Part shown: piece by piece, positions 18,001-27,000 of the stretch
Layout of the letters: each line of letters begins with the position of its first letter
How positions within the stretch are numbered: position 1 is the first letter of the stretch
Source: an uncultured Planctomycetaceae bacterium
GTDB lineage: Bacteria; Planctomycetota; Planctomycetia; Planctomycetales; Planctomycetaceae
Reading direction: 5' to 3'
Length of the DNA stretch: 64,000 nucleotides
Assembly (NCBI GenBank): GCA_963976765.1
Contig: CAXBME010000005.1
Coordinates: 62,001-126,000, forward strand
Program-made: the position numbers

Positions 18001-21000
18001 CGCCCAGCCGACTGGCAATTGGGAACGCTAATCCCTTTGAACCTCACACCGCGCGATCAATTCTCCGCAACAGACTACGACTTCGCATTCCTGACAAGGT
18101 CACCTGGATTTACACCGCCTGCAGCTGACCCTTTGTTCGAGCTTATATCTGAGTATGTCTTATGCTCAGAGGGGGCGGAATGAACGCGTATTACATCCCC
18201 GGTCTAGAACACTACTTGAGAATTGTTGATGACTGGTTTTGACCAATTGCATCCCGCCCTGCAGCACCACATCGTCAACAGCCTCGGCTGGCGTGAGCTG
18301 CGACCGTTTCAGGATGCCGTCATCCCGCAGGTGCTCGACGGCAAGCACCTGATCGTGCTCGCACCGACGGCTGGCGGTAAGACGGAAGCGGCGTTCTTTC
18401 CGGTTATGTCGCGAGCGTTGTCCGAAGGCTGGTCTGGCCTGAGCATGCTCTACATCTGCCCGATCAAGGCGCTGCTCAACAATCTGGACTTCCGCCTGCA
18501 GCGCTACACCACGCTGCTGGGGCGACAGTCGGCGGTCTGGCACGGGGACATCAAGCCATCGGCCCGCAAGCGAATTCTGCGCGAGCCGCCCGACTGCCTG
18601 CTGACGACGCCCGAGTCGCTGGAAGTCATGCTGGACTCTCCCAACGTGGATGACCGGCGGCTGTTCGCCAACCTGCAGGTCGTCATCATCGACGAAATTC
18701 ACGCCTTCGCCGGTGACGACCGTGGCTGGCATCTGCTGGCCGTGCTGGAACGCATCAGCCGCTTGGCGGGACGCGAACTGCAGCGAATCGGGCTGTCGGC
18801 CACAGTCGGGAATCCCGAGATGCTCGCCGACTGGCTGGCAGGATCGTGCAAGGGGACGCGTGATGTGTTTCTGCCGGCTGACTCAGGACCGGGCGAAGCG
18901 GACGTGACGCTCGATTACGTCGCATCGCTGCAGAACGCCGCCGTGGTGATCAGTCGCCTGCATCGCGGCGAGAAGCGGCTCGTCTTCATGGACAGCCGAG
19001 CCCGCGCCGAACAGCTTGGGACCGAACTGCGAAGTCTCAGCGTGCGGACGTACGTGACGCACAGCTCGCTCAGCCCGGAACAACGCAGGCAGGCGGAAGA
19101 AGCCTTCGCGACGCAGGACGACTGCGTCATCGTCGCCACCAGTGTGCTCGAACTGGGCATCGACGTCGGTGACCTGGACCGGGTCATCCAGATCGACGCT
19201 CCCGGCACGGTCGCCAGCTTTCTGCAGCGTATGGGTCGCACGGGACGTCGAGCGGGCAGTCCTCGCAACTGCCTGTTTCTGGCCACGCGAGACGAGTCGC
19301 TGATTCAGGCGGCCGGCCTGATCGACCTGTGGCAGACCGGCTTTGTCGAGCCCATCGTTCCGCCACCGCATCCCTGTCACATCGTCGCTCAGCAGTTGAT
19401 GGCGTTGACGCTGCAGGAAGGGGGCATTGGACGACGGGACTGGTTCCGCTGGATCGAGGGAGTGTCTGGTTTCGCGGCCATCCCGCCGGAGCAGATCGAG
19501 CGGATCGTGGATGGGATGCTGGCCAGCGATATCCTCTGGGATGAAGACGGCATCCTCGGCATGGGCCGCGAAGGCGAAGACACTTTCGGTCGCCAGCACT
19601 TTCTGGAGCTGTTCTCGGTCTTCATGTCGCCGCCCCTGTTCGCGATCCGGCACGGACGAGCAGACCTCGGCTTCGTGGACGAGATGACGTTCCTGAGCCG
19701 CCAGGAGGGAGCACGAGTCCTGCTGCTGGGTGGTCGAGCCTGGCAGGTGACACACATCGACTGGCAGCGCAAGGTCGCGTTCGTCGAGCCCAGCGAACAG
19801 AAAGGACGCTCCCGCTGGTTAGGAACCGCGCCCGGCCTGGGGTTTCATCTGTGTCAGGCGATCCAGCGAGTGCTCGCATCTGACGAGCCCCAGACTTGCT
19901 GGTCGCAACGAGCGATCGACCGCCTGACAGAACTTCGTGCCGGCTACTCGTGGCTGGTTCCTGCGGCGTCGTCTTCAAGTGATGAGTCAGCCTCAAACGT
20001 CCCGGTCATCCTCCAGGAGGCGGACGACAGCGTCTCCTGGTGGACGTTCAGCGGGTCTGGTGGCAACGCGACCGTCGCGGCCGAGTTGGCAAAGCTGCTG
20101 CAGAGCCGCGTGGACCACGACTGCTTCAAACTCGACTTCGAGTCGTATGTGACGACCGAGCAACTAACTGCCGCCATTCAACAGCTCAAGGAAGTCCCTT
20201 CGAAGCAGCTGCGACCCACTATCGACGATGAAGCCATCACCGCCCTGAAGTTTTCCGAGTGCATCCCGCTCGACCTCGCAGTGGACATGCTGGCCCGGCG
20301 TCTTCACGACGAAGAAGCAACAGACTTTTTAACCCGTGCCACCGCTCGCACCGTCATCCTGCACTGACCGTCCATCACTCCAAAGGCGTGCAGGCATACA
20401 GCTCCGACGTGCGACGAAAGTCGGTCATCACAACTGGAATGTTGCAAGTGTATAGACGGCGTGCTGCCGTGTGAGTCGTTGTCAGGGCGGTCGAGCATGG
20501 GACCCGGCGGAAAAACGCGAAGGCCACTCGTCCAGGGATCGCATGTGTCGGCAAGGCGTCTTCCATCGTCAATTCTCATAATCTTTGAGTTCAGCGCGAA
20601 CAATTCGGGCCTGTCGCGCATCTAAACCCCGCAAGCACGGCGAAGTCACTCGACACCGTCGCATTCACAAGTCAGCAGACAACCAATAATCCGGGAACAA
20701 GCGAGATGATGGTTTTCAGGTCAGGACTCATTAGCGAACAGAGCGGTTATGGACGATTTGCCGATCAATCGGCGAATACGTTGCCGTGCCCCCTGCGATT
20801 GTGACATCTGGCCTGCCTCTCTCTCTGATTGCATAGCCCGGTGTCACTGACATCGGGCTTTTTTCGTGGACTCATGCAATTCACGACTCAGCGGGTCGGT
20901 AGCTGAGATGGTTTAGCGACGGTCTGAAGAACCGTAGACGAGGATTCAAGCGCCTCTCGACCCACTTGCGCATCTGATGCGCACTCGCACATGCCCCGTT

Positions 21001-24000: not shown

Positions 24001-27000
24001 GTCTCTCAACTCTGGACTCAACCCGACTCCGTGGTCCAACGGCAACGACACCTGCGTGACATGCAGGAGACGATGGTTCAACTCCGTCCGGGGTCACTTG
24101 AGCTGAAGTAAGAATGGTCTGCAGGTGTTTCGGCGGCACACCGCTGTGGTAAGGCGGAAGGCCGGGTTCAATTCCCGGGCGGACCTCTTGAAGAGAAGAC
24201 GACACGGGCTGCTCGTCCAATGGGAAGACGCCTGGCTTGCAACCAGGTAATCGGGGTTCGACTCCCCGGCGGTCCACTTGATGACAACGGGGTCATGGTC
24301 CAACGGGACGACTCCAGCATGGCATGCTGGCAATCCGGGTTCGATTCCCGGTGACTCCACTCGATACGGAAGGTAGCCGGATACGGTTGGCCGGACCGCA
24401 CTGCTAATGCGTGTGCCTTTACGGGCGTGTGAGTTCGAATCTCATGCCTTCCGCTTTGATATGGCCTGATGGTGAAACGGAAATCATCCCTCGCTTCTAA
24501 CGAGGCCCCGTCTCGTTTGTAACAGGGCGGGTTCGAATCCTGGTCGGGCTACTGAGAAGACAAGCCGCCTGTTGCGGCAAAAGGAAGGGCAACCCGATGG
24601 GTGACGGGAACCGGTTGGAAGCCGGTCGAGTGCGTTGACGCGTGCCTTGCGAGTTCGACTCGGGCACCGCCCGCAGGGTGGTCCCTTCCGCTGTGGCCGG
24701 GTCCGGTGCTGGTTTCCGGAGACAGACTGTGAATCTGTTCGTCGTCGGTTCAATTCCGATCGGCCACCTCCAAACCGAGCGTTTGGATCGGATTGCCGTA
24801 GGGGAGCGTCACCAGATTGGGACGCCGCTACGGCGAGTGAGTTTTATGAGCAAAGGACTGGATCGATGGTTGCTGCTGTACTTGATCGACCAACGCTGGT
24901 GCTGAATCGCAACTGGCAGCCTGTCGGCGTCGCCACGGTTGCGAAGGCGCTGACGAAGGTCTGGAACGAGTCGGCGCGGATCGTCGATCCTGCTGACTAC
25001 CAGCAATACACATGGCAGGACTGGGCACAACTGCGACCGGAAGACGGCGATCTGTTCATTCAGACTCGTCGATTCCAGTTGCGGGTTCCGGAGGTTGTCA
25101 CACTGACGAAGTACGACCGCCTGCCGACGAACTCGGTGATGTTCAGCCGGCGAAATGTCTTCAAGCGAGACAAGTTCACGTGCCAGTATTGCGGTGCTCG
25201 ACCAGGCAGCGAGGAATTGACGATCGACCACGTCACGCCGAGGGCTCAGGGTGGAACATCCACCTGGGTCAACTGTGTGCTGGCGTGCATCGGCTGCAAC
25301 TCGCGCAAGGCTGACCGGACTCCGGAGCAGGCTCGGATGCCGCTGCGATCAAAGCCGGTTCGGCCGACGTGGCGACCGCTGTACGCGGCTCGCGGAGTCC
25401 GCATCGAAAGCTGGTCACGTTTCGTTAGCGAGAGCTACTGGAACATAGAACTGAGTGAGTGACACGAGTCGCTGCCGGCCTCGGCGTTGAGGTCGGCAGC
25501 TTTACACAGCGGTGTGCTCCTGGGAGAGCAGGCAGATTCCAAACCTGTCCCACGGGGTTCGACTCCTCGCACCGTTGCTGCGGCATTGCCGCATTAAGTT
25601 GCCGACGTGGCTCGATACAGAAAGGCGCCGGTCTTGCCCTGTCACAATTTGCAAACGGCGGATCATGCGGGTGCGAATCCTGCCGTCGGCCCTCAAGCCC
25701 AGCGGATGTGATGAACAGAATGGCGGTCTTCAATGCCCGCTGGACGAGGTTCGACGGGCGGCGCCCGAAGAATAGTCCGGCGGAATTTTTAATGCACAAC
25801 GCGTCCTCGGAGTGTGGCGGATTCGCACGCGACCCTGCGAAGGTCGAGGACCAGGTTCGATTCCTAGCGGGGACACTTTTCATTTCGACAACACGACACC
25901 GATGCTCGATGGTCGGGCGGCTGCCTGCAAAGCAGCTCATAGTGAGTTCGATTCTCACCGGTGTCTCTTTAATGCTTGCCTTGATGCTGTCATTGCCGGC
26001 GGTGCGTTGGGCTCAAGAGTCAGCCTGACGTATTCCGTGAACGGGTTTTGAACATGACGGTGTCGATGTGGTCGCCCAATTGGTAGGGCACCAGGTTTTG
26101 CACCTGGCTGTTACGGGTTCGAGTCCCGTCCACGGCTCCAACTCTGGCTAAGAACCAGATGAGGCCCGGGCGCGAAAGCGTCCACCAAAGACCCAAGGGA
26201 GATGGGTGACTGACTGATCGGCTGCCGGTGCCGGCATTTCGCAGTCGGACGTCGCGGCGAGAGTCGTGATTGTCGGATTGCGGGTGACGACATTCGGCGG
26301 CAGCACGAAAGGCGTGCCCTGCAGTGTGTGGATACCGCATTCGCAACCTGTGACGCGAGCAGATTGAATCGTGATGACCTGCCAAGACGCCTGTCGCCAA
26401 CGCTGGCTGATCGATGACACCTGCAAACCTCACAGGACGAGATTGCTCAAGCACACTCCGCACGGCGAAGTGTGGTCGGCAGACCTCTCATCTCCCAACG
26501 GTTCTTTTTAGAAACAACAACGACACGAATAGCAAAGTTTACCGCAGGCACGTGCCTGCGATTCAGAGTTCGTCACCCGATGAAAGGCGGTGGCACATGT
26601 TCCCGATCAAGACAATCCGAATTCGCAGCTACGAGATGGGACTGCGCTTCCACGACGGAGAGTTCCGCGGTCTGCTCGCTGAGGGTAAGCACCGACTGTT
26701 CGATCCACTGTGCAAGTCGCATGTCGGTGTCGTCTCGCGGCGTGATCCGTGGCTGCAGCACGAGAAGCTGGACGTCATCGTGAAGTCCGGTGCGCTAAAG
26801 GATCGCGCCATCGTTGTGGACCTCAAGGATCACGAGCGTGGTCTGGTCTCAATCGAAGGCCGCTTCAGTCATGTTCTGCCGCCGGGCCTGTACGCCTACT
26901 GGATCGGTATGAAGGATGTGCAGGTCGAGGTGATTGATGCGCGGAACGTCCGCTTCGAGCACAGCGATTTACGAGTCATCTCTCGGTCGCCGATGGTCGG

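Follow-up and report, generated by a model that had tools for sequence, protein, structure and literature searches.

Type I leucine tRNA genes in a long tRNA array of an uncultured planctomycete, with a probable upstream attenuator and an unclassified 3' RNA

Long tRNA arrays (L-arrays) are defined by at least 20 tRNA genes at a density of at least 2 per kb (PMC4758250). The L-array of the delta plasmid of Anabaena (Nostoc) sp. PCC 7120, or trn operon (Santamaria-Gomez et al., 2021; PMC8421152), is a long same-strand run of supernumerary tRNA genes with HNH and rtcB neighbours, in which 23 of 26 tRNAs were charged in vivo and mistranslation at UUC was not found. It also holds four short Leu genes (75–78 nt), the short arms of which are not mentioned in the searched text of that paper; with 23 of the 26 tRNAs charged, at least one of these four must be charged as well. 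Mycobacterial tRNA clusters contain an embedded HNH gene (PMC6582537, PMC12803027), and a cluster-encoded Leu(UAG) with a short variable loop occurs beside the normal chromosomal one (Behra et al., 2019; PMC6582537). Clusters of the same kind, including Ile(UAU), have been described as degenerate in Planctomycetes (PMC4807772), the searched text making no mention of short Leu tRNAs, of a leader or of a 3' RNA. A leucine tRNA of this type has been characterised in Streptomyces coelicolor, where the sole LeuRS charges a type I tRNA-Leu(CAA) at 44% of the efficiency seen with type II (6.25 vs 14.2), although the Streptomyces type I tRNA is left uncharged by the E. coli and S. purpurogeneiscleroticus enzymes, the leucine-specific domain being decisive (Fan et al., 2019; PMC6614811).

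The window analysed here, a stretch of 64,000 nt from an uncultured Planctomycetaceae bacterium, contains an array of this kind (Table 1). It is an L-array by density, with 38 same-strand ARAGORN calls in 5.25 kb that are supernumerary to the housekeeping set, and by neighbourhood, with an HNH gene and rtcB nearby. Pfam matches confirm the HNH, Band-7 and RtcB genes that the genome-wide survey's note had placed by the array, with the correction that rtcB lies on the opposite strand. ARAGORN also returns the same totals as that note, 122 tRNA genes in the genome and 75 in arrays (38 on the contig of the window, 13 on C27 and 24 on C74), leaving 47 calls outside, and the second copy that it described is borne out: the match of C27 with the window ends at 22462 and that of C74 starts at 22527, which indicates that the two contigs carry a single array broken by the assembly. 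Both copies are 95.6% identical over 29 shared tRNA genes. Contamination as the origin of the two copies was rejected on the basis of an estimate of 0.49%, different flanks and independent indels. Matches to the array start were found in 54 of 121 genomes of the family, patchily among kin, and in neither of the two other genomes of the same genus searched, drafts being liable to miss the array. The L-array would be a horizontally spread spare tRNA operon, present in this host as two diverged copies. No sigma-70-like site was detected within 20300–29500.

Table 1. Features of the array and its flanks in the window
Feature	Coordinates	Strand	Support or remark
Leader ORF, 32 codons	20706..20804	+	uses 17 of the 20 amino acids; Leu-Arg-Leu-stop at its end
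Predicted antiterminator strand	20800..20807	+	overlaps leader stop codon; pairs with terminator 5' arm
Intrinsic terminator	20835..20865	+	11-bp stem and T run; immediately 5' of first tRNA
Long tRNA array (L-array), copy 1	20893..26140	+	38 ARAGORN calls
82-aa ORF within array	21573..21821	+	no family; not in copy 2
tRNA-Pro(CGG) orthologue, disrupted	22115..22206	+	alignment with C27; ARAGORN label 'Lys(ttt)'
Type I tRNA-Leu(CAA), 5-nt variable loop	22922..22995	+	Rfam tRNA 56.0 bits
Type I tRNA-Leu(UAA), 5-nt variable loop	23123..23195	+	Rfam tRNA 56.9 bits
Type I tRNA-Leu(UAG), 5-nt variable loop	23301..23376	+	Rfam tRNA 63.7 bits; A18 replacing G18
Class II tRNA-Leu(CAG), 84 nt, 15-nt variable region	23590..23673	+	
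tRNA-Arg(UCU)	24463..24552	+	23-nt element 24506-24528 in variable region
tRNA-Ser(GGA)	24584..24692	+	23-nt element 24662-24684 at T arm; uncalled by ARAGORN
HNH endonuclease gene, 198 aa	24866..25462	+	PF01844, E 1.8e-13
tRNA gene interrupted in anticodon arm, both copies	25601..25692	+	ARAGORN label 'Gln(ttg)'
Terminal tRNA, encoded CCA	26065..26140	+	mispaired acceptor end
Structured RNA, ~300 nt	26197..26496	+	covarying
SPFH/Band-7 (slipin-like) protein, 368 aa	26597..27703	+	PF01145, E 7.8e-29
RtcB RNA ligase	27767..28939	-	PF01139, E 1e-79; convergent on array
RbfA-like protein, upstream of rtcB	28917..29435	-	PF02033, E 3.1e-8, just under cut-off

The earlier figure of 38 genes holds as a count of ARAGORN calls, and the working number differs, since the array includes mislabelled, interrupted and insert-bearing genes as well as overlooked ones, namely Ser(UGA) at 22736–22818 and a Met-like gene near 23864–23934. 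The disrupted Pro(CGG) orthologue bears its 23-nt element in the D loop (22135–22157), and the 23-nt inserts belong to no repeat family in this genome, with one to three matches within 4 mismatches. With four disrupted genes and the A18 of Leu(UAG), copy 1 is, to judge by its sequence, decaying.

The short Leu genes of the window are canonical cloverleaves of 73–76 nt, and the C74 part of copy 2 has the same three anticodons plus a GAG gene with a variable loop of 7 nt. As the survey's note stated, these genes are short, and class II structure is found in the array's CAG gene and in the five Leu genes of the housekeeping set (83, 86, 86, 87 and 89 nt). Differences in the stems of the short genes between the two copies preserve pairing, including a compensatory 2:71 change in Leu(UAA); position 18 of Leu(UAG) is A in the window and G in copy 2. 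The leucine identity set of E. coli comprises A14, A15:U48, G18G19, A20a and A73 (PMC9976931). Counted over the Leu and non-Leu genes of this genome and of a relative (G001), the full set occurs in 10 of 10 housekeeping Leu genes, in none of 81 non-Leu housekeeping genes and in one of 66 non-Leu array genes, and the LeuRS identity elements, U8:A14 included, are complete in eight of nine array Leu genes, the exception being the window UAG gene with its A18. The short genes combine C3:G70, A73 and a 5-nt loop, with neither the G3:U70 of Ala nor the long arm of Ser. Once they are removed from a whole-body comparison, the isotypes closest to them are Cys, Lys, Ser, Arg or Glu (0.66–0.71); class II Leu does not stand out by overall similarity, and the comparison is not decisive.

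Matching the short-Leu scaffold with no constraint on the anticodon yields 249 distinct hits, of which 248 have a Leu anticodon (127 of 128 from viruses and 121 of 121 from metagenomes); all six Leu anticodons occur among them, and Phe does not. Type I tRNA-Leu is common in Actinomycetota, in the phylum of the host (Planctomycetota) and in phages; the short Leu tRNAs belong to a widespread type that is already described, and the claim that class I tRNA-Leu in a free-living bacterium would be new falls to the S. coelicolor gene already in print (PMC6614811). In G001, a closed genome of one contig in which all 44 RF00005 matches were examined, the sole UAA tRNA is 73 nt long and has the same D arm, and TTA codons stand opposite Leu at 41 of 65 aligned positions (CTG at 1761 of 3244). 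The corresponding values in the genome studied here are 46 of 87 for TTA, 333 of 611 for TTG and 48 of 86 for CTA, an alignment that probes fixed and not conditional recoding. Two further members of the family (G305 and G358) have four class II Leu patterns and UAA only as a stand-alone type I gene; both are drafts that might hide a class II UAA gene, and family members of this sort appear to depend on the type I UAA tRNA.

Like S. coelicolor, the host has a 5-nt variable loop in these tRNAs, class II isoacceptors alongside and one leuS (a single gene above the cut-off, at C17:119210-122503, which would serve both tRNA-Leu types). In S. coelicolor, though, the gene is a chromosomal CAA gene with C48; here the array carries three or four isoacceptors, with A15:U48, alongside a full class II set that makes them redundant. 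The comparison is one of features, and leucylation, demonstrated there, is predicted here. The region before KMSKS (leucine-specific domain) measures 94 aa in the host, 39 aa in G074 and 38 aa in S. coelicolor, so the S. coelicolor charging result is not transferable to this host. The Anabaena CAA gene shares the D-arm motif, but that array is controlled by direct repeats over the promoter, where the present one has a leader ORF and terminator as its probable switch, and the two copies, the Band-7 gene and the 3' RNA module are features of the planctomycete. With the mycobacterial clusters the locus shares the short Leu(UAG) and the HNH gene inside the array; these belong to another phylum and carry GOLLD, whereas the RNA found here is different and shorter.

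We consider it highly probable that the short genes encode type I tRNA-Leu of an attenuator-gated spare L-array, leucylated by the host LeuRS and decoding UUG, UUA and CUA as leucine. The transcripts would be processed, receive CCA and then be charged by the single LeuRS, which would read the D-loop/elbow and the discriminator and neither the anticodon nor the long arm. Of the two readings proposed in the survey's note, LeuRS substrates without the long arm gain support from the identity elements, the scaffold anticodons and the codon test in G001, and recoding of UUA, UUG and CUA gains none. Tight adherence to Leu anticodons, the retained identity set and the apparent reliance of relatives on a type I UAA tRNA also make it unlikely that the short tRNAs, although produced, receive little or no amino acid from the host LeuRS and act in uncharged form as decoys (toxin-RNase sponges or substrates of RtcB), even though LeuRS enzymes vary in accepting type I tRNA-Leu (PMC6614811), the leucine-specific domain region of the host is unusually long, the class II set is complete and a sponge role has been proposed for the Anabaena operonic tRNAs (PMC8421152).

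Decay into pseudogenes of a silent mobile cluster would agree with the degenerate state reported for planctomycete clusters (PMC4807772), with the disrupted genes of copy 1 and with the lower ARAGORN scores of array genes (means of 112.2 and 112.7 vs 119.9), but we hold it to be very unlikely for the short Leu genes, which score 114–123 and have kept their stems with one compensatory change, next to a leader ORF that differs between copies by synonymous changes only. The least credible of the alternatives, with hardly any probability in our estimate, is that the short tRNAs carry another amino acid and recode UUA, UUG and CUA when the array is on. It draws only on the missing long arm and on the unexplained acid-gel mobility of two other Anabaena operonic tRNAs (Phe and Ile), and it is opposed by the absence of Ala and Ser determinants beside A73, by the single non-Leu anticodon among the scaffold matches, by TTA meaning Leu where a type I tRNA is its only decoder, by the codon alignments of the host itself as far as fixed recoding goes, and by the failure to find UUC mistranslation in Anabaena (PMC8421152). 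We infer that the short Leu tRNAs almost certainly still carry leucine.

Leader-peptide attenuators of the trp, his and leu type consist of a short ORF, an antiterminator overlapping the ORF end and an intrinsic terminator. The same layout precedes the array, unlike them with no run of a single amino acid and placed before tRNA genes instead of a biosynthetic operon. The leader peptide is identical in the two copies (three synonymous and no non-synonymous codon changes) and differs from that of G392 by seven synonymous and three non-synonymous changes. Across 19 sequences the antiterminator pairing is kept in 92.1% of cells, with two-sided change in four of eight pairs; the terminator is kept in 19 of 30 related loci, and in the folding model the two structures are mutually exclusive. 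A covariance model, for which 150 of 1578 candidates were scored, gave strong scores only to the two array leaders (72 bits, the next reaching 31.7); the weaker matches resembled ordinary terminators. These structures make the leader ORF and terminator a probable ribosome-sensing on/off switch, in which the terminator would normally shut the operon and ribosome stalling in the leader ORF would lead to read-through.

The upstream switch and the unclassified 3' RNA are less familiar than the rest of the block, and no description of either was found in the literature searched. The ~300-nt RNA sits between the CCA-encoding terminal tRNA, whose anticodon varies freely among orthologues, and the Band-7 gene, and has no Rfam match, the GOLLD, ROOL and Y RNA models included. 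Like GOLLD and ROOL (PMC12286853) and the bacterial Y RNAs (PMC4201824), it adjoins tRNA and RNA-repair genes and has a tRNA-like module; unlike them, it is ~300 nt long and matches no Rfam family, and no gene for the Y RNA partner Ro60/TROVE was found in this genome. It is conceivable, at somewhat less than even confidence, that the array serves translation rescue as an attenuator-gated operon and ends in an undescribed RNA module, made up of a CCA-encoding tRNA with an unselected anticodon (a handle that does not decode, a decoy or a signal for processing) and the ~300-nt covarying RNA, the module being co-inherited with the slipin-like Band-7 protein and RtcB and possibly forming an RNA-repair ribonucleoprotein.

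The genes of this host extend the known type I tRNA-Leu to another array and add little further weight as far as the Leu tRNAs are concerned. Short-armed tRNA-Leu is common and is the sole decoder of UUA in some genomes of the phylum, a point missed by textbooks and by the assumption of class II structure. If true, the gating of tRNA genes by a ribosome-sensing attenuator would account for the switching-on of these arrays outside cyanobacteria, and RNA-repair loci would gain a new non-coding module in the tRNA with a free anticodon and the unclassified 300-nt RNA.

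The window covers G000:C5:62001–126000, and its host is probably a planctomycete, judging by the most frequent taxon in the nearest Band-7 cluster. The array of the window consists of 38 tRNA genes on one strand, and 75 of the 122 tRNA genes of the genome lie in the arrays (both counts by ARAGORN). The short leucine-anticodon tRNAs described there by the genome-wide survey's note are real: Leu(CAA), Leu(UAA) and Leu(UAG) are cloverleaves of 73–76 nt with a 2-nt connector and a 5-nt variable loop (type I), scoring 56.0–63.7 bits with the Rfam tRNA model, and class II structure is found in the array Leu(CAG) as well as in each of the five housekeeping Leu genes. 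The second copy of the array is broken between contigs C27 and C74, at the place corresponding to window 22463–22526, and shows 95.6% identity to the first over 29 shared genes. Several ARAGORN labels are wrong, because the Pro, Arg and Ser genes and one more of the window copy are disrupted. In the first three, 23-nt elements stand in place of about 6 nt; the Pro and Arg elements have end motifs in common with the elements of an interrupted gene in both copies, and four elements of the Ser type lie in the array of a relative (G319, L233).

Features of the tRNA array and its surroundings, in window coordinates
Feature	Position	Strand	Remark
BREX-type genes	9551–20367		PglZ, BrxC/D ATPase, Lhr-like helicase; directly upstream of array
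Leader ORF, 32 codons	20706–20804	+	3' end overlaps a strand that can base-pair with the terminator's 5' arm
Terminator	20835–20865	+	pattern match, conserved in related loci
tRNA array	20893–26140
23-nt element, Pro gene	22135–22157
Short Leu(CAA)	22922–22995
Short Leu(UAA)	23123–23195
Short Leu(UAG)	23301–23376
23-nt element, Arg gene	24506–24528
23-nt element, Ser gene	24662–24684
Interrupted gene	25601–25692
Last array gene	26065–26140		encoded CCA
~300-nt RNA	26197–26496	+	between last tRNA and Band-7 gene; z -2.58
RbfA-like and DUF1016_N-like genes	28917–30485		RbfA-like gene overlaps rtcB start; same order in copy 2

An encoded CCA was found only in the last array gene (1/38 in copy 1, 1/37 in copy 2, 0/46 parsed housekeeping genes). 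Its orthologues in 20 loci keep the tRNA body, yet they carry ten different anticodons plus one 6-nt loop (ARAGORN) and their acceptor end is mispaired, so that judging by these sequences this tRNA is unlikely to be a decoder. The neighbouring HNH, Band-7 and RtcB genes were confirmed, with the correction that rtcB is oriented opposite to the array. By analogy with proposals for Anabaena, the HNH gene may spread the array and RtcB may repair cleaved tRNAs.

Short Leu genes are widely distributed. A strict pattern (control 0) detected them in 41 of 301 genomes from this phylum, as the only tRNA within ~3 kb in 16 of 30 loci, and a GTDB scan gave at least 120 loci, the 80 titled ones belonging mostly to Actinomycetota; at 101 of the 120 GTDB loci listed the gene was the lone tRNA in 850 bases. 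Relatives annotated as tRNA-Leu occur in named phages. Among other arrays, that of Anabaena PCC 7120 holds four Leu genes (75–78 nt), those of Kovacikia, Tsukamurella and Nonomuraea hold five, one and one short Leu genes, respectively, and that of Acidiphilium has four of 82–84 nt. A class I tRNA-Leu in a free-living bacterium, which the survey had taken as new, was already published: the type I tRNA-Leu(CAA) of S. coelicolor is leucylated by the sole LeuRS (leucyl-tRNA synthetase) of that species (PMC6614811). Mycobacteria encode a short Leu(TAG) in a tRNA cluster (PMC6582537), planctomycete tRNA clusters have been described as degenerate (PMC4807772), and 23 of 26 operonic tRNAs of Anabaena were charged, none being reported there to mistranslate at UUC (PMC8421152).

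The other possibility raised by the survey was that the short tRNAs carry another amino acid and recode Leu codons. Leucylation of a type I tRNA is not automatic, since the Streptomyces one is no substrate of E. coli LeuRS, the leucine-specific domain being decisive (PMC6614811); the LeuRS of the studied genome is an open frame of 1097 aa (G000:C17:119210–122503) with 94 aa in the region of this domain, before KMSKS. Whole-body similarity, with the short Leu genes dropped from the reference, did not favour class II Leu. The E. coli Leu identity set comprises A73, A15:U48, G18G19 and A20a, the anticodon and long arm being dispensable (PMC9976931), and A14 is also described as a LeuRS identity element (PMC6614811). 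All five elements are present in 8/9 array and 10/10 housekeeping Leu genes of the studied genome and G001 (a closed, single-contig relative), the exception being the window Leu(UAG), with A18; the full set appears in 0/81 non-Leu housekeeping and 1/66 non-Leu array genes (9 of the 1124 tRNAs of the run could not be numbered). The short Leu genes have C:G at 3:70 instead of the wobble pair of Ala, and their stems stay paired despite the differences between copies, with one compensatory change (2:71, UAA gene).

Viral and metagenomic sequences were scanned with a pattern of the D arm plus the short spacing, leaving the anticodon unconstrained (at least 122 loci per scan). Among the distinct matches listed, 127/128 viral and 121/121 metagenomic ones have a Leu anticodon; together they cover all six Leu anticodons, and a Phe anticodon was found in none. 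In G001, where the 40 fetched 20-kb regions cover all 44 RF00005 matches, the sole UAA tRNA is a stand-alone type I gene of 73 nt (L193:11297–11369) with the same D arm as the window genes. In 200 of 261 BLASTP pairs between G001 and the studied genome, kept after identity and codon-position filters, TTA stands opposite Leu at 41/65 positions and CTG at 1761/3244. These anticodons and the TTA count lend no support to recoding, which we consider extremely improbable. By pattern search, two drafts from the family to which the window belongs, G305 and G358, have the same arrangement as G001; a stand-alone type I tRNA-Leu(UAA) is apparently the only UUA decoder in these two and in G099, G074 and G210 (L407, L408). 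In the array of another relative (G412, L404) the body of the Leu(UAA) gene is nearly that of the window Leu(CAA), which by its sequence is an anticodon switch inside the Leu set. The short Leu tRNAs belong to a type that is already known and common, and it is almost certain that they read their codons as leucine.

The array is preceded by a leader ORF and a terminator. The leader peptide is unchanged in copy 2, with three synonymous codon changes. Among 30 related loci, gathered by a search with the leader inside the query, 19 have the terminator motif (pattern), and 16 of these have an ORF of 17–39 codons ending 21–34 nt before the stem, 12 of them with Arg-X-stop. The alignment consisted of these 19 loci, and the terminator pairing of 98.6% is therefore partly circular, the loci having been selected by the terminator pattern. 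The antiterminator, outside the selection pattern, is 92.1% paired, with two-sided change in 4/8 pairs, and 2/500 shuffles were as high. Predicted folding gives the terminator a probability of 1.0 without a ribosome or with one at the stop codon, and the antiterminator 0.56–0.84 with a ribosome stalled within the ORF, so that in this model stalling would form the antiterminator and open transcription of the array. Our literature search found no description of such a leader-ORF/terminator switch before a tRNA array.

At the 3' end, the 19-nt core motif of the ~300-nt RNA (up to 2 mismatches) was detected in 47/301 genomes of the order. Of 30 loci fetched, 19 have a tRNA just upstream, most of these with a Band-7 gene downstream. 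Over 17 of these 19 loci, 36 of 54 predicted pairs (chosen core pairs) were counted, being 95.4% paired with two-sided change in 17/36 and 0/500 shuffles as high, for a structure derived from the same alignment. The RNA is also present on one viral contig, with conserved order. Rfam gave no match for it, no TROVE gene was found in the studied genome and no paper describing such an RNA was found in a literature of incomplete coverage. Our best guess is that it serves the Band-7/RtcB repair unit, either as a partner or as a leader. The main interest of the locus lies in the leader switch and this unclassified 3' module, and not in the short Leu tRNAs.
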